64,000 nucleotides of DNA, taken from positions 19,096,001 through 19,160,000 of the forward strand of contig OZ231126.1 in the NCBI GenBank assembly GCA_965153355.1. The letters run 5' to 3'. The stretch comes from Flaccisagitta enflata (lineage: Eukaryota). The position numbers were made by a program, and so were the translations under genes. Numbering within the stretch: position 1 is the first letter of the stretch; every line of letters begins with the position of its first letter. The notes beneath the pieces are model-generated. The model made no database searches. It was not told where the DNA came from and saw only the letters and a list, made by a program, of their open reading frames with translations. Below are positions 20,031-62,694 of the stretch, piece after piece.

Positions 20031-23000
20031 CTATGATGAATCAAGGGACTCAACTAATTGCTTTATAAGGTCTAGGTTAACAAGAAATAATTTCAATGTC
20101 TTTCTGCTTCCTTTTGTCTCAAAAACAGGCCTCATTGGTAAGACTGACTCCTTAAGAATAGAGGAAGGCTTTGCAGATACATCATCAACCCAATGGGACA
20201 AAGACTGTTGTCCTCTGACATTCACAGACTTCATAAAAAGTACATCTGCACATTCCAGATAGCATTTTTGCACATTACCAATGCAGAAACTATTCCCAAC
20301 TAAAACTGCTATATGCTCTTGTTCTTTCAGGGGCCAACAACCATTTGAAAGCCACACTGAGGGATCTAATGAGACCTCAGGTGAAAGGTCCAGTCTTTCA
20401 ACCTCATTTACTCCACCTGCCTCATCATAAAGTGCTTCTATGTCGCTTAAGGATGCATGACATTTTGGTTTTGTATCATCTGTCAAGAGCTGTTTCAGAT
20501 GAATGATGCGGACTTTGTTATCAATTCCCTGTTGTTTGAAAAGCTCATTGTTGGTAGCCACTTTAAGAAGGCAAGTGAATTTTCTGTATCGAATTTCAAA
20601 ATTCAATGCAGAAGCAAGTTCCTTGTCATTTCTTTTATCTTTTATCAGCTGATCTAATTCAGCTAAAGTGTGAATGGGTCCACCATGACTTTCTTTGCAT
20701 TGACGGACAACCCTCTGAACCTTGGATTCCTTGGAAAGAACCACCGCTTCATCTTCACGTAAGCCAGCAGCCATAAGTGACTTTTGTCTTTTATCAAACT
20801 GCAACTGGAGTTCATCAACCTCCTTAGTAATAGTTTTTAAGGGCCTCAAGTTAAAGTTTCCCTTTTCCAAGTATTTTTGAATTAGGTCCTCTGTGTGTTT
20901 TATGACAAGGTCATCACATATTTTGTCTTTGGATTGACATCCTCCAGACACTTTTGTTTTTTGGTCGACTTCACCAAAAAATTGTTCAACTGCAATGGAG
21001 GTTGTCTCAACATTATCCACGTTTTCTTCTGATACTTGATTGAGAATACTTAGCTGTGGCTGTGAACCATCCCCAAATCCAAATATATCTCCCTTTTGAC
21101 GCTTAAACCCAATGGCTATTTCTTGTGCTACATCCTTGCAAAAAAGTTCCAAATATTTGGTATCAATTTCATGGAGATAGTTTTCCAAAAAATCTATTTG
21201 TGTTTTTGGGTATGGTGGGTCAATTTCATCATTGGGGTCAATCCAAGCATCCTTTAAACAAGGGATGGCAGGTTCTCTCAACTGAGTGAAGCTAAGAGGA
21301 GTTTCAAGCATTTCCTTGTAAAGTTGTGGAAAAATTTTCATTAACTCAGACATTTTTGCCCGCTTAATCATAAGCAAATTGACATAGGGCTCTCCTATGT
21401 GGATGCCAATCAATGCTGCTCCAATCCAATAAAACAAAATAACATCATGCATAGGGAAAGCACTTCTTAAAAAACATGTTAACTTATTACGAATATCCGA
21501 GTGGATCTGCAGAAAATGTTCAATATGGCTGAAATGATAAGCTCCAGTAAGTGCTTTTGCCTCCAGCTCCCCAAACCTTATTTCACGCAAGGGGCCTGTT
21601 TCATTTTTCAATCCCTTCCTTTCAAGCCACTCAGTGAATTCATGATACTTGTTCCATGACCGCTCTGCCCACTGCTTTGAAGCAAGACTCATCAATGCAT
21701 CCAGCACTTGCTTGACAAGTGAATCACTGGAAGCATCCAAATTGCAATACTCCAAGCTTGGGAAGAGTTTGTCATGGCCAATTTTTGACTGATGCCTCAT
21801 CCAAATTTCAACAACACTTCTGGACATCATAAGTCTAGGGTGAAGGTTGCAGTATGCTTGTCCTGGTTGCCAAGCACACCCAAGTTGTTGAGCCACATCT
21901 ATGGCCAGATTCATATTTACCTTACACATGTCTGAGACTAGGACCATGATGCTTTGCCAAATGCTAGAGACTTCTTGTCCTGAAGCAATTGCCAGGCGTT
22001 TGATCATGTGAACAATAGTTTCAACCCATGATGAATGATTTTCTGAGCCCAGTGTTTGAAGTCTTAATGCCCTATATTTCTCACCAACTTTGACAATTGC
22101 TCCTGCCATTTTCCCCCACCCTCCTTGACGTGCGGTGCCATCTGGGATTAAATTTGCATTTTGCAAACTAATCATTTCTAAAGCCTGTTCCTGTTCTCCC
22201 AGAGTACTGATTAAGTGATGTGCAGCCCTCAATGCAGTTGGTGTACATAGCATTCTTGATAAAACCTCTTTCCTCCCTTGATCTGATATTCCGCGTTCTT
22301 CTACCTCAATCAAGTCATCATTCTTTTCATTTTCTGAAAGGCAGTTGCTATCTACTGGTAGTTGTTCTTGGTCAGTCTCCAAATCTGCATGAGTAGTTAC
22401 TATGTCTGCTACTTCCTGACGCGTTTGCACAGTCTGTTCAGTAGTACTTTCTTGGCTAACTGATGGAGTCATTTTGGCTAGCTTTCTACGCAGTTTCATT
22501 TTTTTCCTGTATTCTTTCTCAAGTGAAGGTGGGAGGATGTAATTTTGTCGAAAAAGAATGTTAGCAGCAATCTTAGTGCAAAGGATTGCCTGTTTAGTGC
22601 TGACACCTGCTACTCCCATCATAAGAGAACCAGTTGCAAGGAGACGAGGATTTAATCTCCGTGAGGTAGATTTGTTTTTCTTAGAATAAAGCCTTGTGCT
22701 AACAGTGGGGAAGAGACTATCATCAGTTTGACTAGCTATGCTCCGTTTGCTAGTTCCATTTATTGCAGCTTCTAAATCAAAACTTTTAGTTGAGCGAGTC
22801 CTCACTGCTGAAATATATTGAACTTCTCCTATGTCAGATGATGAGTCCTCAAGAACCTCCTCTGTCTCATCTGCCCTACAGTCAGAATCAGTTGAAATAG
22901 CAGAATAGTCCATAGTTGCACTAGCTATGTAATTTCTGTGTCTACGTTCTCGTTCGCTTTTTTGGCTTAAATGAAGCTCAAATTCCTCTGTAACCTTTGA

Positions 23001-23663
23001 TGTGTCCAAGCGTAATTTTCTGGGTCCTCTTTGGTCTGCAAGGAATTCCTCATCGAAAGCATCACCATGTGTGATTACTTTGACCCTTTCCTGCTTGCTA
23101 AAAATATCAAAAAGTTCACAACCTACTTGAGACAACCATTTTTGTTCAGCACTAGAATCAGTTCTCAAATTGAGTTTACGTGGCATATCTGATTTTTTCT
23201 GAACCTGAACATTCACCACTTCATCAATAATTTCTGAAAGTAATGCAGAAACATCCTCATTTATGTCACTATCTTCAAATGGTGGGAGTGTTACACATCT
23301 TTTGAACTTTGATGTAGATGCCCTCTTAGATGGTTGCCTACTTGTATTGGGGAGCCTACGCTTCTTTGTGAACTCTGAAGGTGATCGGGATGGCATTGGG
23401 GGATTGATGCAATTTTTTTCATTACGCAACTTGTCTAAAAAATAACTGCGGTCTTTCAGAAGACTTTTGCAGTGTTTTATGATGGCTGGTTTAGACATGG
23501 GGCATACATCAGCATTTTTCCAAATCTTTCCAATTTTTTCAGCTGCATCAGCCATCGCACCATTTTGTGAATATCCCCCATGTTTTGTTCGAGTTGTAAT
23601 AAATGTAAAAACTTGTCCCTTAGTAGGTAGCATATCTTTTTTAAAGAAAAAAAGCTTATCCAT
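20031..23663 (-). CDS. Intact single-exon DDE transposase, ~1210 aa (hAT/Kolobok-type CxxH class; hATm-like N-terminus)
   Basis: Uninterrupted ORF; first ATG at 23663 (MDKLFFFK). N-terminal LPTKGQV...IWKNADV, LFDI and FLADQRGPRK motifs. Candidate catalytic D (IPDGT), D (VSDMCKVN), CxxH (YCNLHP) and E (VEQFFG). Confidence 0.85.
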   Translation of the reverse strand: MDKLFFFKKDMLPTKGQVFTFITTRTKHGGYSQNGAMADAAEKIGKIWKNADVCPMSKPAIIKHCKSLLKDRSYFLDKLRNEKNCINPPMPSRSPSEFTKKRRLPNTSRQPSKRASTSKFKRCVTLPPFEDSDINEDVSALLSEIIDEVVNVQVQKKSDMPRKLNLRTDSSAEQKWLSQVGCELFDIFSKQERVKVITHGDAFDEEFLADQRGPRKLRLDTSKVTEEFELHLSQKSERERRHRNYIASATMDYSAISTDSDCRADETEEVLEDSSSDIGEVQYISAVRTRSTKSFDLEAAINGTSKRSIASQTDDSLFPTVSTRLYSKKNKSTSRRLNPRLLATGSLMMGVAGVSTKQAILCTKIAANILFRQNYILPPSLEKEYRKKMKLRRKLAKMTPSVSQESTTEQTVQTRQEVADIVTTHADLETDQEQLPVDSNCLSENEKNDDLIEVEERGISDQGRKEVLSRMLCTPTALRAAHHLISTLGEQEQALEMISLQNANLIPDGTARQGGWGKMAGAIVKVGEKYRALRLQTLGSENHSSWVETIVHMIKRLAIASGQEVSSIWQSIMVLVSDMCKVNMNLAIDVAQQLGCAWQPGQAYCNLHPRLMMSRSVVEIWMRHQSKIGHDKLFPSLEYCNLDASSDSLVKQVLDALMSLASKQWAERSWNKYHEFTEWLERKGLKNETGPLREIRFGELEAKALTGAYHFSHIEHFLQIHSDIRNKLTCFLRSAFPMHDVILFYWIGAALIGIHIGEPYVNLLMIKRAKMSELMKIFPQLYKEMLETPLSFTQLREPAIPCLKDAWIDPNDEIDPPYPKTQIDFLENYLHEIDTKYLELFCKDVAQEIAIGFKRQKGDIFGFGDGSQPQLSILNQVSEENVDNVETTSIAVEQFFGEVDQKTKVSGGCQSKDKICDDLVIKHTEDLIQKYLEKGNFNLRPLKTITKEVDELQLQFDKRQKSLMAAGLREDEAVVLSKESKVQRVVRQCKESHGGPIHTLAELDQLIKDKRNDKELASALNFEIRYRKFTCLLKVATNNELFKQQGIDNKVRIIHLKQLLTDDTKPKCHASLSDIEALYDEAGGVNEVERLDLSPEVSLDPSVWLSNGCWPLKEQEHIAVLVGNSFCIGNVQKCYLECADVLFMKSVNVRGQQSLSHWVDDVSAKPSSILKESVLPMRPVFETKGSRKTLKLFLVNLDLIKQLVESLDSS

Positions 23664-24666
23664 TTTTACATTAATAAAAGAAAAGAAAATATAGTATTTT
23701 ACAACTGGATAATATCTAAGAAATACTATATATTTCACTTAAGTATTCTCTTAAGAAAAAAAACTTTTAAAAACTTTAATGCCCTACTTTAATGTTGTCT
23801 CAAGATACCCTACTCAAAGATAAGCTCATGTACCTCTAGTTAAGGAAAAAAATGTGAAAAAAAATGGTTGATATCGATAGTAACAAGAAAACAATCAACG
23901 CTTCTTTCAAAGGACAGATAAAGTTATGGATACACAGACGCACATAAGCGAAAGGAAACATAAGTCAAGCTCAATCAGCTTCGTACAAGCAGCTTGACTC
24001 TTTTTTACACAAGATCGCAAGAGATAACACTTTTAAAAAGTGAATTATTGGTTTAAGAGATGTTTTTTTTTGAAAGGAAATAACGAGATCGCTCCGAAGG
24101 TAACAAAATTGTAAACCGCAGCGAGCAGCAACCGGCAACTGTGATTCACGCTAAGCCGCGCCGCAGCAGCAGCAGCAGCCGCGGCAGGAACCGAGTTTTA
24201 CCTGACAGCAGCGCGCTCGTCAGAAATCGAAAGTTGAGAAATATTGTGACAGACATGTCAACGTAAACAGCCTAGATTCTGCACATTTAATTATAAAACC
24301 CCTCAATATGAGTATCATTAGAAAGAGAAAGCCTCGCTCTTACTATGTCAGTAGTTTTTTCGCTGATTTAACCCTCTCAGTCCCCTCTACTAATGATTGG
24401 TTTTCAATTGAATATCATCGGGGCGTGTGATACACACGTCAAAACAGTTTTGAGTCAAAATTGGGCGATTGGATGTATTAAGATATGCTGGAAACATACT
24501 GAAATTTAAGTGTTTTAAATCGGTTCAACCTGTCGAAAACGATTTTTTTTGCCTTTTATCATCATTCTCATAAATGAAAAGAGAAAAAATTTGAGGTGCT
24601 GATTATTCCGGGAGCCATTTAAAAAAAAGGCAAAAAAAGGTTGTTTTTACAACATTTTACTGTACA

Positions 24667-24842: not shown

Positions 24843-26115
24843 TAATTATAAATCCACGATTTAAAGGGGCCCGAAGAGCCCCTTGACTATTCTTGAAATA
24901 AAGGAAAAAAAGAAATAAAAAAAGAAAAAACAACCCAATATAAAACCAGGCCCCTGAAAAAGTGGTGTGTAAAACAGGACCCTTATCTGATAAATTTTGC
25001 ATTCTGCTGTTACTTTTTATAATCCCTTTTACAGTTCAACATTGAATTCTTCTGAAAATTGAATCTAAAGATAAGTAATCTATATAAAAACTGCATATGC
25101 TACTATTGGAACCTTAATCGTGCCAAAACAAAAGAAAGAAGGTTGAAGCCTGAATTTGTTATATAATTATGTAACACTTCTTTAAGCCGCTAATAAAATC
25201 TAATATTTATTATTTAATATTTTTCTTTCTAGCAAAACTTTTTTCTATTGATGTATTTTTAAGAGTATACAATTGAGTCACTTTTGATTTTTCCCCCCTG
25301 CCTTTTTCTCCCGCGACGCGATGCATAGCGTTTTAAAATCTACGATTTTCTTTCCCTTAAAGCTAGAAAACCGTGTAGTTAAGGTTTAGATAGGGTTTTA
25401 AATTGTGATTTACTATTTATGATTTAGTACTTAAGTTACTTTTTCCAATTTCTCTTTTTGGGGGGGGGGGGGTCCCCATCTCCAGACCCTTTGATTTTTT
25501 CCCCTCACAAGGGGAGGGAACTCAATTATATACAGGCCTGTGTATTTTTGAGTTTTTGGTCAAACGGATATTCGACCGTTATGACCCAGCTACTCAGCGT
25601 AAGCCAACCTTTCAATCCAGCCGAACTCGGTGTGACCCTACTCGCCTGTTCAAGAGTCCGTCAACCCAACACCCCTATTTAATATTTTCTAAATCATTTT
25701 ACATACGCTTTTTTTTGAGTAAGGACAAAGTTTATAAGCACATGAGGCTGAAATTTTACCAAAAATTAAGGACATTAAGAATAAAACCCAGCCTCAGATT
25801 TATCAAAAAAATTTTGATTCAAAATTCAGATTGTTTTATGCATCTTTTTAAAGAAATAGCTATATTTTTGCATAATATAATATTTATATAAGAATAATTA
25901 CAAAGCAATACATCTAACTCCTCACTCATATTTACTTATATTGAACATCAGTTATTTCAATGCATAAAATATAATCAAAAGAATATTATAAGAAAATATT
26001 AAGGACATACTAAAAACATTTCAGCCTGAAATTTACAAAAATGTAAAGACATCCCAGCCTCAGAAAAAATTTACTGGTCCTTATGAAAAAAAAGTGTACT
26101 CTCAGAAACTCATTA

Positions 26116-26878
26116 CGATGGGAGCAAAGAGGACGTAGACTGGAGGATAGATTTTAAATATGTTAATTTCATTCGATTTATAGAAAAAATTGCGATCTAT
26201 GCTAATCAAAAGCTGCATTATTGTTTGAACATGCTAACTTTTCTCATTGACATCAGAACTTTATTAGTCGCATGCTACACGACTACACCCAGCATGGTCG
26301 GCCTGTCCGTTGGTCCGTCTGTCGGTCCGTCCATTGGTCTATCCATCACACTTTACTCTTTATGGATTTTTGTGGTCTTAAGCCTTACAGCTCCTGCTCA
26401 AATGATCAAGTGACCTCAAATATGGCCCCTGCCCATCCGCATGCGACTGGGGTAGCCGTGTTTCCGGCCTTGTTTTTCAACATTCTAACCTAGCCCTAGA
26501 TTGAGCTGAAAATTATATTATTTTCAAAAAAAAAATCAGCCTAATCGGATTATTTTTGCAGGTTTTACAGCCATTTTTAAAAAAAAACAAATATATAAAT
26601 TTATATCTGGGCAAAGCTTAAAACTAGCATAGAACCAGTTAAAATAGTCCCATTGAGCTGATTTTCTCTTAATTTCATAGAATTTTCTGCCTGATCTGAT
26701 GAGCTAAGTTAGAACATGGAAAAATGAAGTCCTGATGAAATCAAGTCACAAGTTAAAAAATAAGAGAGGCCAATATATTCAAGCAATAAAACAACCTTAA
26801 ATTAGTATAAAATTAAATTAAATAAAATTAAGATACCTAAAATCTATCCTCCAGTCTAGGTCGTCTTTGCTCCCATCG
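26116..26878. mobile_element. MITE, Tc1/mariner-pogo-like
   Basis: TA|CGATGGGAGCAAAGA...CTGGAGGATAGATTTT and its inverse ending TTTGCTCCCATCG|TA. Confidence 0.85.
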
Positions 26879-27149
26879 TACTGTACCTTTGGAGAAGTTA
26901 CACTCGAAATTAAGAGGTTGTGTCACATGTGTCCATCCAAAATACCCATACCGAGCCCTACCCTGACCTTGTCCCCACCCATATCCTAAAATTTTGCAGA
27001 AAAAAGTTAGTTACAAAGCTAAGCTGAAACTGGCCGATGTTGTGTGGATGATTTAGTATAAAATCCAAAGAAACACCAAGATGAGCAATTAGAGTGATAA
27101 TGCAATTTTTAAAATTGCAGAAAATCAAGATGAAACATCTTTTCATATG

Positions 27150-27700
27150 CAGCAGATATTGTCTAGACTTGGAAATACGGGGAATTCATTACAAAAAGAA
27201 AAATATACCTAAGAAACTGATATTTGGAATCTAGACTAATAAAAAGATGCTTTATTGCCCATAGGTATTTGTTGCTATGTAAACACGTTCATGTGTTCAA
27301 GCTGAAGTATCAATATTTGATAAATTTGAGAGAACTTGGTTTAAATTAAAATTTGCTACAATTTTCCCCTAATTTGCTCTGTAAGAACGTCGCCCATTCA
27401 GCCATTGCTAGGGAGCGTAACTATGTGACAGCCCTGTGATGCTCCCTAGCAACCGCAAACATGCGATATTCTTACAGAACATTTTGCGAAAAAATTATGG
27501 CAAATGTTATTTCAAATATTCCCTCAAAAAATCTCTAAATATTGAAACTGCGTGAATACATAAAGATGTGTTTCCATGGCAACAAACACCTATAAGCGAT
27601 ATAGCTTCCTTTTATTAATTTAGATTTCAAATCAGCCTCAAGTTTATTTATCTTCCTGTAATAAATTCCCCGTATATCCAAGTCAAGACGACATCTACCG
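27150..27700. mobile_element. Palindromic MITE, Tc1/mariner-pogo-like
   Basis: CAGCAGATATTGTCTAGACTTGGAAATACGGGGAATT versus AATTCCCCGTATATCCAAGTCAAGACGACATCTACCG|TA. Same TIR family as 42447-45792. Confidence 0.8.
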
Positions 27701-27924
27701 TAACAATTTGAAGAAACAAGGATGAATGCCTATCTATGGATACGTTATTTGCGCTTTCTGCGACTACATTTGGCGCGTACCCCCAGGAGAGGGGGGTTAC
27801 TCATTTTTACGCGCACAAAAAACAACCACAGACCAACAGACAGACGACAGACTGATGGACGAGGCTCGCATAGAGATGCAAGGACGCATCCAAAAATTTT
27901 TTTAGAAGACATTTTCCATTTTTG

Positions 27925-28263
27925 ACTTGCATCTAAATTTTTCAATCTGCGTTTTAACCTTCTTGCTCATAATTTGATAATAAACTAGTGGCCAAAGAAA
28001 AAAAACAAGAGAAACAAAAGAGCGAGAAAGACAAAAACAAGAAAAAGATAAGAAGCCCATAAACAAAGATAGAGGGAGAGATAATCTGCATCTAAATTGC
28101 ATCTAAATTGCATCTAAATTTTTCAATCTGCGTTTTAACCTTCTTGCTCATAATTTGATAATAAACTAGTGGCCAAAGAAAAAAAACAAGAGAAACAAAA
28201 GAGCGAGAAAGACAAAAAGAACAAGAAAAAGATAAGCCCATAAACAAAGATAGAGGGAGAGAT
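27925..28263. repeat. Direct tandem duplication of ~180 bp
   Basis: TGCATCTAAATTTTTCAATCTGCG...GATAGAGGGAGAGATAA occurs twice (~27928-28084 and ~28109-28265). Confidence 0.9.
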
Positions 28264-28776
28264 AAAGAGACAAAAAACAAACAAAACGAATCACTAAATC
28301 AAACAATCAAACAGCAATTACGCGCAATAAGCTGCACTGAAAAAAAAGACTCCCATTTACGACATTTTCCCGGTCGGCGATAGACGCCTATATTGTACTC
28401 GCTATATGCTTTTAGAAAGCTAACTTCACCTATTTAACTGATTAGCGAACTGACACTGAAGCCCTTGGGCCACCCTCAGGGCTGATTGGTCGGTTGGCGG
28501 CCCACATGTTGCAATGTCCCAATAGATTCCAACGAAGGAAAAGAAACGGACACTGTTGGAAGTCTGTTTGCTTGCAGTGGAGGCCATGATTGGACGATAT
28601 CTTGTTAAAGGAAGCTCAAAACGTGTCTAAATAGGGTCGGTTTTAGGTTTTATCGCGTCAAGGACGGCCCCAGTACACTCGAAAATGGACAGGATCACCC
28701 CCGCCCAAGGAAGGAAGAAGAGATGGAAGCTTTTCTATACTCTGTAAAAAAAAGCAAAGAGGTGGAAGCGACAAAA

Positions 28777-28782
28777 TTTATT
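28777..28782 (-). terminator. Candidate polyadenylation signal of the nucleoplasmin-like/miRNA transcript
   Basis: First minus-strand AATAAA I can find downstream of the stop at 30352. Followed by a U-rich tract (A-run at ~28746-28753 on the plus strand). Confidence 0.5.
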
Positions 28783-28889
28783 AAATGTAATTTGATGGTT
28801 TAGGAAACAATGACGACGGATTCAATAGACAAACTAGTTGACAGAGAAATCACTCGGAGGAAAATGGTCGTAGACAAATAAGGCAATAA

Positions 28890-28945
28890 CGAGAACTGTC
28901 GATCTGTGATAAATATCATGAAAATCGCAAAAAGACAATCCAGAT
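28890..28945 (-). ncRNA. pre-miRNA-like hairpin K1; predicted 3p UAUCACAGAUCGACAGUUCUCG
   Basis: Arms TGTC..TGTGAT / ATCGCA..GACA around a ~13-nt loop. Seed AUCACAG. Confidence 0.6.
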
Positions 28946-29009
28946 CAGTACCCACATAAGTGAATGAATGCCGGAATGAAATGAGCACGATGGAACTAGA
29001 TAGCAATAA

Positions 29010-29068
29010 CAGAAGCTGTCATTCTGTGATAATTTGTTAATAATCATATCACAACTTGACAACCTTAG
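29010..29068 (-). ncRNA. pre-miRNA-like hairpin K2; predicted 3p UAUCACAGAAUGACAGCUUCUG
   Basis: GCTGTCATTCTGTGATA / TATCACAACTTGACAAC arms, 15-nt loop. Confidence 0.7.
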
Positions 29069-29103
29069 CCATCACCATTTTTTTGGCGATGTTAATAAGC
29101 TTA

Positions 29104-29175
29104 TGCTCAAGATGGCACAACACGCTGCCCAATTTAGGTAAAAACATTGGGCAAAATGCGGTGCCATACTGCGCA
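29104..29175 (-). ncRNA. pre-miRNA-like hairpin G1; predicted 5p UAUGGCACCGCAUUUUGCCCAA
   Basis: ATGGCAC...TGCCCAAT / ATTGGGCA...GTGCCAT arms, 12-nt loop. Plus-strand A-C mismatches become G-U pairs on the minus strand. Confidence 0.75.
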
Positions 29176-29246
29176 GCAAAGCGAAAAAATCAAATGAGTC
29201 AAGTAGCGTTAAAATGTTTGCGAAAACGTAAAACAAATGGCAACGA

Positions 29247-29307
29247 CGATAACTGTCGATCTGTGATATACGACAACAAATACATCACAAATAGACAGCC
29301 CTTATCG
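29247..29307 (-). ncRNA. pre-miRNA-like hairpin K3; predicted 3p UAUCACAGAUCGACAGUUAUCG
   Basis: CTGTCGATCTGTGAT / ATCACAAATAGACAG arms. Confidence 0.7.
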
Positions 29308-29406
29308 GCACCAATGTATTCACATAACTGCCCCTGAACGTCAAGATGATACTGAAAGGAAGACGGTGCATTAAGACGACATCGAAAGGAAGAATTTGTA
29401 AGGCAA

Positions 29407-29466
29407 TGGTAAAAGCTGTCATTCTGTGATAATTTCATTACCATCACATTGTGACAACTTGAACCA
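29407..29466 (-). ncRNA. pre-miRNA-like hairpin K4; predicted 3p UAUCACAGAAUGACAGCUUUUA
   Basis: TGGT..AAGCTGTCATTCTGTGAT / ATCACATTGTGACAACTT..ACCA arms, 12-nt loop. Confidence 0.7.
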
Positions 29467-29514
29467 GCACCTTTCCGTAATATCAAGCAGAGGACGTAAA
29501 CAGCTTGCGATTAG

Positions 29515-29572
29515 AACGGCACTGAACATGGCCCAATTTCAATAATATTGGGCAAAATACAGTGCCATTATG
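29515..29572 (-). ncRNA. pre-miRNA-like hairpin G2; predicted 5p AAUGGCACUGUAUUUUGCCCAA
   Basis: GGCACTG...GCCCAAT / ATTGGGC...CAGTGCC arms. The arm variant (CAGTGCC versus CGGTGCC) is matched by GGCACTG in the opposite arm. Confidence 0.7.
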
Positions 29573-29677
29573 AACATTCAAGCAGTAAGTAATGAGGTAA
29601 GAAAATTAACGGGCAATAAGTTGTTTTTTTTTCTAAAGAAATGCTCAATTTGAAGCAGTAGTCGACTCATGGCAATA

Positions 29678-29736
29678 GCGCAGGCTGTCTTACTGTGATA
29701 ATCAGATAACCATATCACTATAAGACGGCCTGGGCC
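29678..29736 (-). ncRNA. pre-miRNA-like hairpin K5; predicted 3p UAUCACAGUAAGACAGCCUGCG
   Basis: CAGGCTGTCTTACTGTGATA / TATCACTATAAGACGGCCTG near-perfect stem, 12-nt loop. Confidence 0.75.
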
Positions 29737-29773
29737 AGCACCAATAACATTGACAGAGGAAAGGGGCTTGCAA

Positions 29774-29840
29774 TCAGAATAGCACGGCACCATGCCCAAT
29801 TAAAAGGTGAAGTTTGGGCAAAATGCGGTGCCATAATGAA
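29774..29840 (-). ncRNA. pre-miRNA-like hairpin G3; predicted 5p UAUGGCACCGCAUUUUGCCCAA
   Basis: ATAGCAC...TGCCCAA / TTGGGCA...GTGCCAT arms. Mature arm identical to G1 and G4. Confidence 0.7.
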
Positions 29841-29889
29841 CGCTAAGCTTTAGTCGCAGAATAACAATGACTGAGAATTAAGGCCATAA

Positions 29890-29946
29890 AAAGAATTGTC
29901 ATTCTGTGATGTCCGGACAAGCTAAGATCACAAAGTGACAATTCTC
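29890..29946 (-). ncRNA. pre-miRNA-like hairpin K6; predicted 3p CAUCACAGAAUGACAAUUCUUU
   Basis: AGAATTGTCATTCTGTGAT / ATCACAAAGTGACAATTCT arms, 16-nt loop. Confidence 0.75.
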
Positions 29947-30029
29947 ATTAGCACCTCTAAAAAAGTGTCAAATTGGAGTAAGAAAACCGTCAGTCAATAT
30001 ACCCAAAGAGCTAATGATGGCATCGCAAA

Positions 30030-30082
30030 AAGAGCTGTCGCAATGAGAGCTGTCATACTGTAATAATCAAGAAAGACAGCCC
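30030..30082 (-). pseudogene. Degenerate K-type hairpin K7
   Basis: GAGCTGTCATACTGTAATA has a mutated seed. The opposite arm is truncated (AAGACAGC), and there is a local AGAGCTGTC duplication. Confidence 0.5.
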
Positions 30083-30112
30083 AGCATCGGAAAAGTTAAG
30101 ATGTAAAAGGCT

Positions 30113-30190
30113 CATGTTGAGAATAACACAGCACGCAGCCCAATAGGACGGTCATGACATTGGGCAAAATGCGGTGCCATATTGTACATT
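30113..30190 (-). ncRNA. pre-miRNA-like hairpin G4; predicted 5p UAUGGCACCGCAUUUUGCCCAA
   Basis: ATAACAC...GCCCAAT / ATTGGGC...GTGCCAT arms. AACAC pairs fully only as minus-strand RNA (G-U). Confidence 0.7.
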
Positions 30191-30351
30191 TAAGCGATAA
30201 GGACGGAAAGAATTGCTGTTTAAGTGTAGCGAGTAAAATCCTTGTGAAAAAGAGGCGGAGAGTTGTTACGGAGCGAGATTAAAACGCGAGATTAAAGGAG
30301 AGACGATTGAGAAATGAGTCAAATGTGAGTCCCATATTTGTCGACAAAAGT

Positions 30352-31921
30352 TCATTCTTTAGCCTTGCGGTCCTTGGACGTTGGTTCTCCGACTTCCTTG
30401 GCGTCCTCGGTGATATCCTTGACCTCATCCCCATCAACTTCGTCACCTTCGGTCTCCATTCCAGACGCGTCGGAGGTCTCCAAGTCGGCCTTCGAGTCGT
30501 CTGGCTTGAAGTCCTCCGTGTCGACGTCGGCATCGGCGTATGACTCGACGATGTAATTGCCGAGGATAGACACGGGACCGGATCCCTTGACCAGTTTCAG
30601 CGTAACGTCTCGGCCGGAAATCATCTCAATGCGAAGATCCAATCGGCAGAATTCGCTGACGCCTAAGAGAGGGGTTAAGGATTATGATTGAACTTAATTA
30701 CACCAGCTATTGGACAGCAGTTACAAATCTTATCACCTACGCCATTAGGCATAATTACTGTTACCACTTAATTGTAAAATTATGCGGGTCATGGAACTGA
30801 GCGAAAACACGACCTGAGATACATGAAATACACTTTTTAAAAGAACATCAAGGCTTCAAAATGCACTAAAATTACAAACGTATTAGTAGCTATCTCTTTT
30901 GAAAGCTTCGAAAATAAAATGACGTTCTTATAGAAAAAAGTCGGTCCGTCGGTCGGGTTGTCGGTCCGTTACGCCTGTGCAAAAACCGCGTTTCTCAGCT
31001 GTTTTTGGCCACGGTGAGATCCTATACTGAAACAAATGATCAACCAACATGTTTTGAGAGCCTTTTCTCCCTGTCTGTCCCATCTGTCTCTCCATATACA
31101 TGTCACATGATCAATACACAAAGAGACACAGCCCGGACGCATCGTTGCCTGGTCGGGCTTGTTAAAAGAACATCAAGGCTTCAAAATGCACTAAAATTAC
31201 AAACGTATTAGTAGCTATCTCTTTTGAAAGCTTCGAAAATAAAATGACGTTCTTATAGAAAAAAGGTCAAAATTCATAAAATTCATAAAATTCATAAAAT
31301 TCGTAAACATGATGGCAAGACAAACCGAGAGTGAGGGCAGTAAGCACATGACGCGCCTCCTTGTCGTCGCGATCGTGGTAATGAATCTCGACCACGTTGC
31401 GATCCTTCTCAGCGTCGACGCCCAAAGCCGCAGACTTGAACACCAGGAAGTGACTTTCGGTGTCCGCGTCAGCGTCGACCGGAAACTTGACGGCGTGCGT
31501 GTCACTTTTCCTATGGAAACAGACAAAATAGAATTATTACAAACTTTCGACTTACCTAACGAGCCGTTTCAGCGTTATTTATCACAAATGCGCAGTTCAA
31601 AGTCCAACAGAAGAAAACGTTCCAAATTTTTACACACCTGGAAAGTTCGCATCCCCACAGATGGTGAGTTTCGTTGGGCTCGAGATATTCTTCCATTCTG
31701 GACGACCCGTTGGAGACGAAGCTGCTCTCATCACCGGAATCTGCCGAAGTGGAACGACCGGACTTCATAGAAGCCGTTCTCGACGAAGAACGCGAACTCC
31801 TGGAGCTTCTCTTTTGGGCCGCGGCCTTTTTCAGAGCGTCGATCTTTTCCGCGGTAGATTCCGTGGAAGCCGCGGCGGTGGTGGTGGTGGTGGCAGCGGT
31901 GGTAGTTTCCGTCGGAGTCAT
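30352..31921 (-). CDS. Nucleoplasmin-like (NPL-domain) histone chaperone, 259 aa; exons 31921-31638, 31510-31326, 30662-30352
   Basis: GT-AG introns with matching phases (2, 1); CDS 780 nt. Motifs HLWGCELSR, AALGVDAEKDRNVVEIH and TLKLVKGSGPVSILGNY, then an acidic tail and basic C-terminus. Has a T/A/S/R-rich N-terminal extension. Confidence 0.88.
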
Positions 31922-32149
31922 CTTGTTAGAGTGGACGGCGGCGGTTGTGGGATTGAGTGTGAGTGAGTTTAACTGCGGAGAGAAGAGAAAATGAAAATGG
32001 CACAAGGCAATCGACATGAGCGCAAGTAACCGTTGGAAAAGATTAAGAGCAGACGGCACAATTAGAAAAACCTAACACTGACGACAGACTTAAATTGCAT
32101 TCTGCTTGGCTTCATAATTAAACGACCAAGAAACACGAGGTGAACGTCA

Positions 32150-32193
32150 AACCGAATTGAGTGACAAGGAGAGTAAGGAACAGGTATTTATAC
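32150..32193 (-). promoter_or_regulatory. Candidate TATA box plus initiator of the nucleoplasmin-like gene
   Basis: Minus-strand TATAAATA at ~32192-32185 and TCAATTC ~30 nt downstream (~32160). A 5' UTR splice acceptor lies at 31974-31973. Confidence 0.5.
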
Positions 32194-32387
32194 CCATGCA
32201 CTGCTAACGACACAGCCCTAACAGCTGATCGTTCCGACTTCACCTCACCTCACAGCTGTCTCTCAGGTGAGAGAGGTGAGTTCCTGGGCCGGGTAAGAAT
32301 GAAGGACCTGCAAAGTCAGATATGGCAAGGAAAACGTGGAGGGCAGTGGCAATCAGACAATTTTTAGTCGCGTTCCCAGAACAAAGT

Positions 32388-32389
<2 letters not shown>

Positions 32390-32419
<30 letters not shown>

Positions 32420-32525
32420 GCCTTCATCAACATTTATTCCCGTCTTAATCATTCACATCATCATCATACTCATTTTCATCATCATTATCATCATTGTCAA
32501 CATCATCACTATCAACATCATCACT

Positions 32526-32567
<42 letters not shown>

Positions 32568-32659
32568 GCCGCCTTCATCAACATCATCATCATCATCATC
32601 ATTTTTATCAGCATCATCATCATTGTCAACATTATCACCTCCATTATCATCATCATCAT

Positions 32660-32691
<32 letters not shown>

Positions 32692-32692
32692 C
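32390..32692. repeat. Degenerate (CAT)n microsatellite
   Basis: Seen directly. Confidence 0.9.
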
Positions 32693-32915
32693 CTTTGATA
32701 TTCTGGTCTTGGTCGTAAACGTGTCAGCCACTTCTTTGTCCCTGACATCATCATTCCTTTGCATGGAGCGACCCTAAACATAGTGATGGCATCTCTAGGC
32801 CTCTCTAGTTATGGTCTTCTGGAATTTCTATGGTATAAATGGGCGTGTTGAATCGGGAAGAAGGCGCGTGCCACTGAATTGAATAAGTTTGAGACTAGAA
32901 TTATGATGGACGAAA

Positions 32916-33267
<352 letters not shown>

Positions 33268-36077
33268 TTGGAAAGAAGTACATAAAAAGAAGAGAATCAA
33301 ACATGTAAAAAAGAGAAAGCAAGACGAAAAATTGAAATGTCAGCTCACTATCATTTTTAGCTCTAGCTTAGCTCTAGCTACTGTTGGGTTCATGTAAAAA
33401 CTGCCAAAACTAGCTTTGACTTAGTCTAGTCTTAACTAGATGGAGGTATTGAGGCCGGTTAAGGCCTGATTAGAGGATGAAATGAGGATCCGTAGATCTT
33501 GTTACAGGCACAATTTCGTCTTGGTCCTCGATGAAGGGGGGCGTAGAATAGAGGGACACAGAACCAATTAGGTCATCGCTCTCTCTGGTGCCGATGCTCA
33601 TGAAAAAATGAATGGAAGGAAAAGTGAAAAAAGTGGGAAGAGAAAAGGAAGTAACATTAAAAAAGGTCTAAAAAGAGAGAAAAAAATCGATTGCATAGAA
33701 GTAAAAAATTGAGAGGCGGATTTAAAGGGAAGAAAAATACGAATATTTGCCATGAGGAAAAAAGCTTCCCATGAAAATGATAAGACTGATGGCCTTTTTG
33801 CGTTGCATAGAAAAATATCAGGGTGATGAAAGATGACTGATGAGGCAATTTTGAAGGAAAAAGAAAGGGTCTTGTTAAGGAGGGGGAGGGGGCAAGAGCA
33901 TTAAAAGGAAATGGAGGGTTGACAAGTAGTCAACGAGGCGAGCGGACAAATGAAGCTAAATAGTCGCAAAAGCGTTAGATGGTCAGCGTTACCCGTTGCC
34001 CCTATGAGTATATGTGGGTTTGTGATGCAGAGAGGGGCAGCGGCCCGCAAGGGGCTGATGACCTATGCTTTGTAAGTTTTGAAGCACTAGGCTTGAATTT
34101 CAGCAGCAATATTGAGATTTGAGCCATGATGCTTTGATTTGAGCCTCAAGGCGGTGATTTGAGCTTTGAGGCTGTGATTTAAGCCACGAGACTGTGATTT
34201 GAGCTGAGATGCCGGAATACAAGCCAAGACGTTGGGTTTTGAGCTTCAAGGCAGGGATTTGAGGCTTGAGGCTGGGACGTGAGCCTCGAGGCTGGAATTT
34301 GAGTCTTTGGCTGATTTACCTCAAGGCTAGAATTTGAGCATCGAGGCTGGTATTTGAGCCTCTAGACTAGGATTTGGGCCTCAAGGCTGGGATTTGAGCC
34401 TCAAGGCTAGGATATGAGCTTTGATGAGGGTTGACGGAGAAGGAGGAGGAGGAAGAGGAGAAGGAAAAATTTCCCTTATGTATGAAAGCATTGGTCATCG
34501 GCCTCTTCGGGGCCGCTGCCCAAAAAAGAAACTTCGGTAGGAACATAGATGGGAAGACTGCCCAAATTAGCTTAAGCACAAGTGTTATGGCGGATGGATG
34601 GATGGACAGACGGACGGGCCAACGAACGGACGAGCGTACCTAGCGTACACGCAACTGAAATATTCAGCTCTATAAAAGGCAGGGCTATAGGGTGGAGGTG
34701 GGGCGGGCCGCGTAATGATCCACTTGGATCTCCCTCCGCTGTGAGAAGACCGAACAAGAAACCGGGCAAAATTAAGAACATGGATTTAGAAGGGAAGTTT
34801 TTTGCGCCCATCAAGAGAGACGGGATTCTTGGGCTTAATCCAGCGTCTCATATCGTTTTCGGAAGGATCGCTCTCTGTCTCTTTTCTGGTCAATCTGTCT
34901 TTTTATACTTTTTCGGAGGGCTCGCTCTCTGTCTCTTATTTGGTCAATCTGTCTCACATCGCTTTTGGAAGGCTCTTTCTCTTTCTCTCTTTTGGCCAAT
35001 CTGTCTCGTATAGCTCTCGAGAGGCTGTTTCTCTTTTTTGATCAATCTGTCTCTCTGACTGTCACTGATGACCTTCAGTCAAAATTAATTTTGTTTCATA
35101 ACATGTATTTTTACCCTTCTCTCCATTGTCCCTTCTTTCACCCCGTCATGTCTCCTCTTTTTTTTATACTCTCTGGTGTCTGTAATGACAAGGTTCTGTC
35201 ATAGAACGTGAGACTGGTTTCAGTGGACCGATGAATGCATGTTATGAATGCTATGTAATCAAATATTATATTAGGTGCAATTTATCTTCTTTCACTGCAC
35301 AACGTCACCATCATGTCAGCCCACTCAGCTTAGTCCGCTACGTCAAAACTAAGCCACCATGACAAGCCATCACTGAGGCCGGCCATATAACGTGGGCTAG
35401 ACTCAAACTACTTTTGATTCCTGAAGGGCTGTAAATCAAACGTCGTTCAATGAATTCACGACGTTAGTACGATCAAGCGTCAAAGTTCCACGATGTCATT
35501 GAGAAGTCTCGATTTTAATCAACTTTCAATGACGGATCGGACGGCGAATGGAAACAAGGCCGGATACACGGCTACCCAAGTGGCGTTTGTGTGGGAAGGG
35601 ACAGTGAGAAAAAAGCCTAGCCGAGCCAGGCCGAGCATGAGGGCAAGAGCAAATATATGCAACAAGTGACGCGAGGTCACAATATCGTTGCGGACGGGTG
35701 GGCAGGGGCATCCAACCCCTATCCACACCTCAAGTCCCCCGCTCACATACACAAAAAGCATCTTAAACGCTTGTCTCCGCACTTTTCGAATTGGGTCACG
35801 GACCGACGGACGGACCGACGGGCGGACAAAGCCTCTTATAGAGTTGCGTGTTCGCAACTAAAAAAAAAACGCCCATAAACGCTAGTAAAGCTATGTGTTA
35901 CGGACGGACCGACGCGACGGACGAAGCAACAGACAAAGTGGAAACTTTTGAAAGTTTTGATATTCCTTACAGCCCTACACAAGACGGGGCATATACAACT
36001 TTTGTTTTTCATACTTGTGGTTTTGTGGATATTCACGCAGCATGAATCATGCTCATGTTGCTGTTGCTGTTGTTGTT

Positions 36078-36175
<98 letters not shown>

Positions 36176-36186
36176 GAAAGAAAGAA

Positions 36187-36222
<36 letters not shown>

Positions 36223-36223
36223 A

Positions 36224-36287
<64 letters not shown>

Positions 36288-37449
36288 AGGAAAAGAAAGA
36301 AAGAAAGAGAGACTGGGAAGGCAGAGAAAAATCTCTTCTTGAAGACGAAATGTCAAAAAGATTGAATCGTGAAAAGGGTAAAGCCCTCAAAAGGCCCCCA
36401 GATCTGGACGCAAGAACATCAACGGAATTCTACGCTTCATTAAAACGAACACAACTACAGACGGGACCCTAATAAGAGCGGAGGAGGGACCCAAAGTTTT
36501 AGCATCACCCCCTACAGCTTATAGTTCGGACGGAATATAAAATGCTATATGTCACTTTTCAACCCACCATACCCTACAGCCCAAACGGATCATCATATTG
36601 ACCTGAAATTTGGCATGGAGACTCACCATGACCATAGTTTTGGGGCCACCGAGGCGATTTTTGAGAAGTCGCCCCGTTCCAGAAATATGGGGGTGGGGTG
36701 GGGGTACCCCTGGGGGCAAAAATGTCAAAAATTTTTTTTTTCGATTTTTTTAATTTTTTTGACTCGGAGGCTTAATTTAGTGTCTTTGGCACCAAAATAA
36801 AGCATTTTTTCGGTATTTACTTTGATTGAATGCATATTTCTGTTATTTCAAACCTAACATGTCATTTTACTCATTTTTCCAGATTTTCGTCGATCTTCGA
36901 GGCTTGCGAATCATGCGCCAATAATAGCTACTATTAGCTAGTCCAGAGTTCTACAGTGGCTACCAGAAACAGTACGTTAGCTCATTAACATTAGAAAATA
37001 GGAGATAAGAGGTTGAAAATGCCTGATTAGGGTCTGGCAGCCTGCCTAATGATGCACCAGGTATCGTAGGGCGAAAAAAAAGGTAACTTTTTGTCTTGGC
37101 GCAACGCAAGAGTGAGTTAGGAATTCGGTTGAGAAATCCTTCTGTCGTCTGCTCAGGAAAATGAAAGTGTAATTTGTTTACCACAAGTCGTCAAACTTGA
37201 GCTAGGCTGACAAAATGACTGCCAGTCATGTACATGTTCTAATCTATTAGTAACTATTCTGCATCATTTAGGCCACAAGTCAAAGGCGACCAAACATTCT
37301 GCACTCATTCAAATTCATTACGCGATCATCCAGCACGAAGACTCCGAGGTAACTAGACATGTAAAGTAATTGAATGATAGGTGTAATGATTGGAAAAAGC
37401 TATAATTTAGGAGATAAAAAAACACCTGTTTGATATTTTACTCACAGAT

Positions 37450-37956
37450 ATGGCCGAGGGAGTGGACGATTGGATGCCCATTTTGTTTACGAAGATGATA
37501 CTTCGACACGATGTTGAAATTTCCACCTTCCTTGGCAAAGAAGTCATTCTTCAAATCGACGAAGCTTACACCATTGGAAAATCGATTGCCGTAATCTTTG
37601 ATGAGAATGTAATTGGCCACGTCGACAGGAGTGCTAGAAGAGTGGTCTGGCGTTTCCTACGTTCAAAATCAAAACTGCAAGCTAACGTCTATGTTAGAGT
37701 GGGAGAATGGTGTAACCAGTCATGCTTGTCCGTCGTGACTCATTCCCAGGAGATTGGCTTGAGAATCCGTTTCAACGATTTAAATAGGTCTGATGCAAAA
37801 TTCCTTCTTGCCCATTTCACACGAAAAAGAATGTATTCATTTCCTGGGGTTGGCGTCATGAATTGCCCCGACGTCTTGAGGCCATTTATTTGCCCCTGCA
37901 AAGATGAAAATGGAGTTTCTTCTCTCGTTTTTGGCATGAACATGCCGGTAGATTGA
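37450..37956 (+). CDS. Transposon-borne HIRAN-like domain protein, 168 aa
   Basis: Intact ATG-to-stop ORF directly after a splice acceptor (TTTTACTCACAG|ATATG). Motif SIAVIFDENVIGHVDRSARRVVWRFL resembles the HIRAN A-V...(V/I)GH-x-x-R...FL pattern. Confidence 0.55.
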   Translation: MAEGVDDWMPILFTKMILRHDVEISTFLGKEVILQIDEAYTIGKSIAVIFDENVIGHVDRSARRVVWRFLRSKSKLQANVYVRVGEWCNQSCLSVVTHSQEIGLRIRFNDLNRSDAKFLLAHFTRKRMYSFPGVGVMNCPDVLRPFICPCKDENGVSSLVFGMNMPVD

Positions 37957-38071
37957 TTTTTTTCTTCTAAAGAGCACAATGTCATTTCTCATCTCTTTCC
38001 AGGTTTCTTTACTGTAACATACAGTAGTTTGTAGACCGTAATCTGTAGTTTGTAGACTGTAGTTTGTAGAA

Positions 38072-39014
38072 ATGGCCAAGCGGAAGCGCAGAGACATTGA
38101 TGACAACGACGACAATTGGGAACCGGATAAACCTATCAAACCAATTGCCAAAAATGCCAGTTTGTTGGTGGCCCTCGCCAAGAAGAGGAGGACGAAAGGG
38201 AAGGTGGAATGGCGATGCGTCACCTGTGGGAAACGCTGCACAGACCGAACACAGTTGAACAATCACAAAAAATTGCATGGTAGTTGTAGCTTCACAAACT
38301 AGTAGTAGTACTAACATTTCTTTTTCAGGTTCTTGGACAATCCGTTGACCAAATCAAACGGTAATCTTCTTTGACCAAATGCTATGTCTATTTTTCTCAG
38401 TCCAAAAATCCGATTTGATGCCTCAAACTCAACCATCGATTCTCGGCGAACCATCAACTTCCGGCGAACCATCAACTTCCGGCGAACCATCGACTTCGGG
38501 CGAACCATCAACTTCCGGCCAACCATCGACTTCCGGCCAACCATCGACTTCCGGCCAACCATCGACTTCCGGCCAACCATCGACTTTGGGCGAACCATCG
38601 ACTTCGGGCGAACCATCGACTTCCGGCGAACCATCGACTTCCGGCGAACCATCGACTTCCGGCGAACCATCGACTTCACGCGAACCATCGACTCCCCACG
38701 AACCATCGACGTTTGGCCTCCCTTCGACTTCTTGCAAACCAACGGCTCAACAGAAAAGGAGAAAAAAAAGAGAAAAGCGTAAAGGCAAGTATAAAACTGA
38801 AATGTCAAGCATGATTTTTTTCCTGACGTTAGATAAGACATAAGTGAAGACCTCAAGAAAGTGATAGCTTTAGCGACTAAAAATCTGAAAGCAAATTAGT
38901 TTTAAAAATGATGGCAGAAAAGAAATTTTTGAGTTGAGATCACCAGTGTTTCAACTTGCTGCTGTGTGTGAAGTGTTAAAACGTTATCAATGTCAATTTA
39001 ATTAAATAGTGAAT

Positions 39015-39085
<71 letters not shown>

Positions 39086-62174: not shown

Positions 62175-62694
62175 GTAACTTATTGTGAATGGCTTTTATT
62201 GTCCAACTGTACAAGTATATCGATGCGTGTTAGACACGGATGATCGATAATCGATATTGGATAAAGATTTACTGATAACTAAGACCAATTTCGGTTTAAA
62301 TTGGCCTCTTGGAATTATGTGAATTAAATGATCGATCGATGAAAGAATTAGTTGTCCCAGACGTACATGCATGACCTTGCTTCTAGTTGGCTGTAAATTG
62401 GCAATTATTCCCGACTCAAACGGTCAGTGTTAGGCGGCGCGGTGACACGCTTTTCCATTTGCGTCCTACGGATGAAACAAAACTTGTTAGTGAGGGCGGC
62501 GTGTCCTCGTATGATAGCGCGGCTTGTCTGTCTTCGTTAGTTCCTCCGATCAATAAAAGATGGCCAAGACGGTGCGCTTGGGTGCTTCACATAGCAAAAG
62601 TTGCTTATTTCTTTTCATCCTCTTTACCTAATGTGGAGTGGCAAATTTTAGGAGCCTTACCATTTTTCTTTTATCAAAAATCATTCATCTTCCG

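Follow-up and report, generated by a model that had tools for sequence, protein, structure and literature searches.

MicroRNAs (miRNAs) in exons of coding transcripts make up ∼6% of the human miRBase entries, and 29 are held in MirGeneDB; the known hosts mostly carry one young hairpin, and its processing is expected to destroy the message (PMC12465437; here and below, papers are cited for individual passages). The human FSTL1/miR-198 hairpin lies in the 3′ untranslated region (UTR) of a coding mRNA, and the two products arise from one transcript by mutually exclusive processing (as stated in PMC4441384 and PMC12465437). In Drosophila jigr1/miR-92b, a miRNA of a conserved family lies in the 3′ UTR of the long coding isoform (PMC4441384), and processing of the Epstein-Barr virus (EBV) cluster miR-BHRF1-2 and -3 destroys the polyadenylated BHRF1 mRNA and lowers the protein (PMC4723338). 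The insect miR-309/3/286/4/5/6 cluster shows egg and early-embryo bias and acts in maternal clearance (PMC4238352; PMC10139094). Here we describe 11 predicted miRNA hairpins in the 3′ UTR of a nucleoplasmin-like gene of the chaetognath Flaccisagitta enflata. The host gene lies on the minus strand of a 64,000-nt stretch (OZ231126.1, positions 19096001–19160000, part of a 794-Mb assembly of nine contigs), called the window below; coordinates are window positions unless they carry a prefix C1 to C9. A literature search covering the leading results and mostly open papers found neither a nucleoplasmin-hosted miRNA cluster nor a chaetognath miRNA survey.

The host transcript and its 3′ UTR

The RNA sources listed were eight marine plankton RNA assemblies from three studies, each holding part of the stretch, and one raw-read run; four of the nine were aligned (X1, X2, X6 and the raw-read run X9). 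The plankton contigs are mixed-sample assemblies from which strand, level and minor ends cannot be read. Because they are ∼98% identical to the genome, they appear to stem from a related population. The host gene model has its ATG at 31921 and coding exons at 31921–31638, 31510–31326 and 30662–30352 (780 nt, 259 amino acids [aa] plus stop). The transcript features, all on the minus strand, are as follows.

32187–32192, minus: TATA box candidate ∼270 nt 5′ of the ATG, from sequence only; RNA depth absent at 32088–32370
31973–32165, minus: probable outron (or short first exon plus intron), pyrimidine-rich AG acceptor at its end; the X1 contig match stops exactly at 31972
31638–31972, minus: first observed exon, 51-nt 5′ UTR, ATG at 31921, Thr/Ser/Arg-rich N-terminus (gene model and RNA contig)
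31326–31510, minus: coding exon with nucleoplasmin core domain, Pfam PF03066 28.4 bits (cut-off 25.8, E 2.4e-6); joints present in RNA contigs
30352–30662, minus: last coding exon part, with core-domain end, acidic tract and basic tail, TGA at 30354–30352; PF03066 positions 82–100, alone below cut-off
28763–30351, minus: 3′ UTR with the whole cluster, 1589 nt, unbroken from coding sequence to poly(A) in X1 record 1; X2 record 9 covers 30498–28880
28777–28782, minus: poly(A) signal AATAAA (sequence and RNA contig end)
28763, minus: observed cleavage/poly(A) site 14 nt past AATAAA, followed by a U-rich stretch (14 T in 30 nt); X1 23-letter tail, X6 end at 28768

Record 1 of X1 (2468 nt) covers 31972–31637, 31509–31325 and 30661–28763, skips both introns at GT–AG ends and finishes in 23 A (T on the plus strand). 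The tail is non-templated: the following 20 nt of genome include 2 A, and the following 30 nt include 14 T. Internal oligo-dT priming was rejected as the source of the tail, the genome being T-rich there. Intron 1 was also skipped in X2, and intron 2 in X2 and X6. Record 9 of X2 runs as one contig from coding sequence into and through the cluster, and in X6 a 3-nt gap at 30194–30198 separates two contigs.

A sequence-only reading of the window had proposed that one transcript could be both chaperone mRNA and carrier of the hairpins, and the spliced, polyadenylated contig supports this. Because the X1 contig joins the coding exons, the 11 hairpins and the non-templated tail, the location of the cluster within the spliced, polyadenylated 3′ UTR of a nucleoplasmin-like mRNA is supported. 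The spacing proposed from the letters also held: the distance from the stop is 156 nt to the lower stem of the first hairpin and 170 nt to its predicted mature arm (∼160 nt had been stated), and from the stop as far as 27648 the minus strand has a single AATAAA, at 28782–28777, past the last hairpin.

The assignment of the host as nucleoplasmin-like was likewise upheld, since the middle exon passes the PF03066 cut-off and the remainder of the domain lies on the next exon. The host protein resembles the nucleoplasmin/nucleophosmin family in the order read in its translation (core domain, acidic tract, basic C-terminal tail) but is divergent, with a long Thr/Ser/Arg-rich N-terminus; a PDB sequence search with the core exon gave no match. 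The reading frame is under purifying selection: nonsynonymous divergence (dN) is 0.09–0.21 against two paralogues, on C3 and C5, and 11 of the 17 changes listed are synonymous. As a separate observation, the X1 and X6 contigs have 18 nt more than the genome at 30510, inserted in frame within the acidic tract.

Hairpins of two seed families

The 11 hairpins lie between the stop and AATAAA in the order A1 B1 B2 A2 B3 A3 B4 B5 A4 B6 B7. The four A hairpins carry a miR-96/263-type 5p arm with seed AUGGCAC, which we take to be the seed of miR-183/263a; the seven B hairpins, one of them decayed, carry a miR-2-seed 3p arm. Folding was compared with dinucleotide shuffles (z).

30120–30181, minus: hairpin A1, predicted 5p arm 30181–30160, miR-96/263-type seed AUGGCAC; z −3.6; ends predicted
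30044–30084, minus: hairpin B1, decayed, loop nearly lost, seed variant AUUACAG; z −1.9; 13/22 paired; lowest model score, 49.9 bits
29890–29945, minus: hairpin B2, 3p arm, miR-2 seed AUCACAG; z −4.5
29776–29835, minus: hairpin A2; z −5.4
29679–29732, minus: hairpin B3; z −3.9
29513–29569, minus: hairpin A3; z −4.2
29410–29461, minus: hairpin B4; z −5.1
29247–29302, minus: hairpin B5; z −6.3; Rfam mir-2 18.5 bits, below gathering 45.5
29109–29168, minus: hairpin A4; z −4.5; Rfam mir-96 27.8 bits, E 0.0036, below gathering 65
29010–29066, minus: hairpin B6; z −4.4
28890–28942, minus: hairpin B7; z −2.4; 72 bits with the B model

Nine of the 11 gave z between −3.6 and −6.3 (the others being B7 and B1), and 2 of 35 control windows fell below −3. 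Exact seed words are concentrated here: 10 of the 23 on both strands of the 64-kb window are within 1.34 kb of cluster, on the minus strand. An origin of the hairpins from a transposon or miniature inverted-repeat transposable element was judged unlikely, the stems being imperfect, one arm conserved and the copies few.

A genome search with the last exon found five places: besides the host gene itself, C9 has a copy at 99%, C3 and C5 have one paralogue each, and C7 has a fragment. The C7 protein match (C7:61833580–61833678) was rejected as a full gene; it is an isolated last-exon fragment with an acceptor, without other exons or hairpins. The C3 and C5 genes have introns as in the host gene and hairpins A, B, B, B after the stop, so that the cluster follows the stop codon in all four intact close paralogues (host, C9, C3 and C5). 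Among the C1, C3 and C5 loci the last exons differ by a synonymous divergence (dS) of 0.83–1.15, at the dN given above, and the UTRs align at hairpins only. Since 4–11 hairpins stayed in place through duplications with dS near 1, the arrangement appears to be kept by selection. The host copy has apparently expanded a 1A+3B cluster to 4A+7B, and the miRNA dose per transcript would rise with it. Gene and cluster are also contained in a block with a near-identical copy on C9.

24860–36448, no strand: 11.6-kb block with gene and cluster, duplicated at C9:35376599–35388172, 98.7–99.1% identical

The ends of this block and its copy are sharp and the flanks unrelated, and by eye there is no terminal repeat or target duplication; the copy may be a real duplication or an assembly issue. 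Further clusters were sought with two sequence patterns (16 and 14 matches) and with hairpin models on chosen loci, a scheme that may miss diverged clusters. Among eight one-mismatch matches to the A arm, two were true hairpins (C3 and C5) and six were not.

Across the host, C3 and C5 loci (19 hairpins), the mature arm is more conserved than star, loop and flank. The 5p arm of the A hairpins is nearly invariant, with one position differing among the three loci. In the 13 B hairpins, 88.9% of alignment cells are paired and 11 of 25 pairs have changed on both sides; none of 500 shuffles reached this level and slid controls were 33–61% paired, although the structure was derived from the same alignment, which biases the test in its favour. 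The miR-2 seed AUCACAG stands on the 3p arm of 12 of the 13 B hairpins and is that of the genome's Rfam mir-2 loci. The X2 contig adds a population view. It differs from the genome at 24 positions, 20 of them in the UTR, where most are common to three runs and were therefore counted once. None of the 20 falls in a predicted mature arm (3.3 expected, P 0.028), and one falls in mature plus star sequence (6.5 expected, P 0.004), in the decayed B1.

Precursor features point the same way. Predicted precursors are 50–68 nt in 18 of the 19 hairpins, a 5′ U is present in 17, and CNNC at +15 to +19 in 13, including all six A hairpins; the ends are predicted and these counts have no chance control. At least 16 of 22 arm bases are paired, in a hairpin of ∼55–65 nt, in every case but B1 (18/19). 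Of the machinery, Drosha (E 7e-56 against human chains) and Dicer-1 are in the genome.

In comparison with Rfam, the scores stayed below the gathering thresholds. The B hairpins score 18.5 and 17.9 bits with RF00047 (mir-2; gathering 45.5) and are thus seed relatives rather than canonical mir-2, which the genome holds elsewhere (five of seven matches at or over the cut-off). The A hairpins carry the UGGCAC core on the 5p arm, and A4 reaches 27.8 of 65 bits with RF00669 (E 0.0036). A genome scan with RF00706 gave no match, but its control was also without a match anywhere.

Structure, conservation and the finding of Drosha and Dicer-1 in the genome together lend good support to the miRNA nature of the cluster, and processing is predicted from them: the hairpins are very likely cut by Drosha and Dicer into miR-96/263-seed 5p and miR-2-seed 3p miRNAs.

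Three further observations concern the same families and enzymes. On C3 (11.316–11.320 Mb, minus strand), three B-like miR-2-seed arms have at least 20 bases paired with partners 60–100 nt away, giving long-loop precursors; no nucleoplasmin gene was seen nearby. The last exon of Drosha (C6:32455944–32460824) holds an open frame of 1626 aa with the second RNase III domain, a stretch resembling a double-stranded-RNA-binding domain, and then a tail of ∼1400 aa with a high content of P, R, D, H and S. The P/RS-rich region of known Drosha is N-terminal, and a tail of this kind after the RNase III domain may on that account indicate a rearranged Microprocessor. Several genes occur in pairs: the mir-2 clusters at C5:80.89/80.95 Mb and C1:3.12/3.33 Mb (the latter with a hairpin that is presumably miR-71-like), Dicer at C7:47.53/47.65 Mb, and RPS3a on C3 and C6.

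Distant relatives and trans-splicing context

The genome holds at least eight nucleoplasmin gene-like loci, including four more distant genes: a tandem pair at C1:51.31 Mb, one on C2 and one on C4. The C1 pair (51.312–51.318 Mb, plus strand) forms an operon-like row of a TATA box, a spliced unit with A, A and B seed hairpins, AATAAA, an acceptor directly before the ATG of nucleoplasmin 1, two miR-279-seed hairpins, and nucleoplasmin 2. Its two weaker A-seed hairpins have z of −1.9 and −1.6 and the B-seed hairpin −4.7; these hairpins score at most 14.8 bits with the cluster hairpin models. The miR-279-seed pair between the two genes has z of −4.1 and −4.2 (Rfam mir-279 E 0.067). On C2 (22.398–22.402 Mb, plus strand), a cyclin B gene lies ∼750 nt upstream of the nucleoplasmin gene on the same strand, with a tiny open reading frame between them.

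The region upstream of the host gene resembles an outron. It has the TATA candidate, a weak GTCTGT as its only donor candidate within 31973–32165, and the acceptor at 31973, and the 5′ end of the X1 contig carries five further letters beyond the genome match at 31972; trans-splicing of the host mRNA is probable on these signals. A 14-mer from chaetognath cDNA 5′ ends has been shown to be a spliced leader (PMC2566580). The genome contains it 154 times (control, 7); it is arranged in tandem arrays, and a GT donor follows it. Together with the planktonic RNA sources and the miR-2 loci, these arrays indicate that the animal is a chaetognath. In another chaetognath, trans-splicing affects nearly half of the genes and operons account for 18%, and germ cells are enriched for genes of these kinds (PMC12460157); the main text of that paper mentions neither nucleoplasmin nor miRNA, and the term nucleoplasmin is absent from three of its text supplements.

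Arrays of spliced-leader RNA genes were seen at C5:2.49 and 2.66 Mb, C6:45.78 Mb, C7:6.68 Mb and C4:24.72 Mb, with periods of ∼860, 1090 and 1370 nt. Other copies of the leader are scattered and run into unrelated sequence, resembling retrocopies of trans-spliced mRNAs. Elsewhere in the window, 20031–23738 (minus) is an intronless open frame of 1235 aa that has no Pfam match and is possibly transposon-derived. The stop-broken open frames at 37411–41194 (plus), with a weak C2H2 zinc-finger match, give the impression of a decayed DNA transposon. At 59490–62243, a Lys/Ala-rich basic frame (plus, 241 aa, Pfam match absent) and an acidic frame further on are possibly exons of one chromatin-associated protein.

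Proposed role, alternatives and known systems

We consider it probable that the locus makes a bifunctional RNA polymerase II transcript, at once nucleoplasmin mRNA and two-family primary miRNA transcript (pri-miRNA), with a possible role in germline or embryo. RNA polymerase II would make one transcript that is both the chaperone mRNA and the primary transcript of the cluster. Molecules escaping the Microprocessor would be polyadenylated at 28763 and translated, and those cut at any of the ten intact hairpins would lose the tail and release miRNAs. Because any hairpin cut parts the coding sequence from the poly(A) tail, each molecule would be either exported as mRNA or consumed as pri-miRNA, and, by known Microprocessor chemistry, the share cut would set the protein:miRNA ratio.

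Whether the unit serves germline or early embryo, combining chromatin remodelling by the chaperone with seed-based silencing of mRNAs bearing K-box (TGTGAT) and TGCCAT sites, is in our judgement evenly balanced. The suggestion draws on the host family, on the cyclin B gene upstream of the C2 relative on the same strand, and on shared seeds: K-box and miR-279, both present here, are two of the four families in the egg-biased insect miR-309 cluster (PMC4238352; PMC10139094). A wider version appears rather doubtful: nucleoplasmin mRNAs would be obligatory primary transcripts of miR-96-, miR-2- and miR-279-seed clusters, the Microprocessor would switch a stored oocyte message to maternal-clearing miRNAs in the embryo, the seed set would converge on that of insect miR-309, and the C1:51.31 Mb locus would record an operon origin. 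There, loss of an internal poly(A)/trans-splice boundary or operon reshuffling would turn a neighbouring miRNA unit into a 3′ UTR.

Several observations weigh against the bifunctional germline or embryo transcript. Bulk plankton RNA readily yields the intact long message, which means that cleavage does not dominate in such samples and that any competition between protein and miRNA would be partial in them. A contig alone is no proof of a single transcript, and breaks occur in X6 (30194–30198) and X2 (30498–30533). The raw-read run X9 gave 0 of 12.2 million records aligned, and no small-RNA run was among the nine RNA sources listed. At Rfam gathering scores the window has no match and no hairpin reaches the cut-off. 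No such seed hairpins were found in the scanned stretches of the C2 and C4 genes, and a metagenome scan for the A arm gave four loci, all chance matches without hairpin or nucleoplasmin, so conservation is documented within one species. Finally, the association described for the miR-263/183/96 family is with sensory organs rather than embryos (PMC2885982).

The last point leads to the alternative that survives best, which we nonetheless regard as unlikely: the same bifunctional transcript would act in the soma, in dividing or ciliated sensory cells, where its miR-263/96- and miR-2-type seeds would jointly repress targets that promote apoptosis or belong to sensory organs, with no maternal clearance. 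In Drosophila, pro-apoptotic genes are repressed by miR-263a/b (site TGCCA) as well as by the miR-2 family, and sensory organs express the miR-263/183/96/228 family (PMC2885982). The transcript is present in bulk plankton RNA of three studies; such RNA, however, is compatible with a germline source, because adult chaetognaths carry ovaries. The host is also a nucleoplasmin, a relative of which adjoins cyclin B, and this speaks against a purely somatic role.

There is a small chance that the outputs are uncoupled, with a short-UTR isoform from a non-canonical poly(A) site making most protein and the long form being mainly pri-miRNA. The long and short isoforms of jigr1 are a precedent (PMC4441384), contigs drop rare forms, and the X6 contigs break at 30194–30198, just 5′ of the first hairpin. 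Against such an isoform, none of 13 kinds of poly(A) hexamer occurs between 30350 and 30195, three weak variants (29854, 29439 and 29320) lying inside the cluster, and none of 11 kinds occurs before the first hairpin in the C3 and C5 paralogues. No poly(A) tail at 30350–30195, the interval singled out beforehand by the sequence-only reading, was found among the loose ends listed (10 of 26). Contig depth in the UTR also equals or exceeds that in the coding part (UTR/coding 31.9/31.9 in X1, 196/109 in X2 and 13/6.7 in X6; flat contig depths, with 3′ bias possible).

It is improbable that the main function of the hairpins is in cis, where, as in DGCR8, Microprocessor cutting or protein binding would set how stable the chaperone mRNA is or where it is located, with little output of functional small RNA. 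Exonic hairpins that control their host are known (PMC12465437; PMC4723338), and the small-RNA products here are predicted; yet selection acts on the sequence of one arm and its ancient seed while star arm and loop drift, and cis cleavage would require structure only. It is very improbable that assembly fused a short nucleoplasmin mRNA to a cluster transcript that overlaps it and has its own start: De Bruijn contigs can join overlapping RNAs and the evidence is contigs rather than long reads, but the stop-to-cluster junction is crossed in single records of two runs from different studies (X1 record 1 and X2 record 9), and in the C5 paralogue there is little room for a poly(A) site and a promoter because the first arm begins only 90 nt past the stop.

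If the bifunctional transcript is as proposed, the paralogues provide a natural series for the sharing of one RNA between protein and miRNA by the Microprocessor (1A+3B twice, 4A+7B twice, and relatives without cluster). They also give a first handle on miRNAs in Chaetognatha and a way to ask if such fusions are promoted by operons and trans-splicing.

As in FSTL1/miR-198, the hairpins lie within a spliced, polyadenylated coding transcript. That system, however, has one primate-specific hairpin in one gene, whereas here there are 11 hairpins, two old seed families and four paralogues, and the switch is a proposal. The jigr1/miR-92b gene has one UTR hairpin and a short-UTR isoform, and no short form was seen among the listed contig ends here; EBV BHRF1 is viral with three hairpins, in contrast to a cellular gene family. 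The insect miR-309 cluster resembles the chaetognath loci in its multi-copy K-box (miR-2 seed) members and its miR-279-seed member, here found at the distant C1 locus only. No miR-3/36 or Brd-box member was seen here, and the miR-96/263 seed is outside the four families of that cluster, which the cited passages do not describe as a coding 3′ UTR; evidence of orthology is absent. Seeds are shared with the canonical mir-71/mir-2 cluster and the miR-96/182/183/263/228 family, and the alignment of A4 with the Rfam mir-96 consensus extends past the seed, but the 3′ halves in the cluster have diverged, all scores are below gathering, and canonical mir-2 loci lie elsewhere in the genome. Single exonic miRNAs in a 3′ UTR are thus already known; what is unusual here is the size of the cluster, the age of its seeds and its conservation across a gene family.

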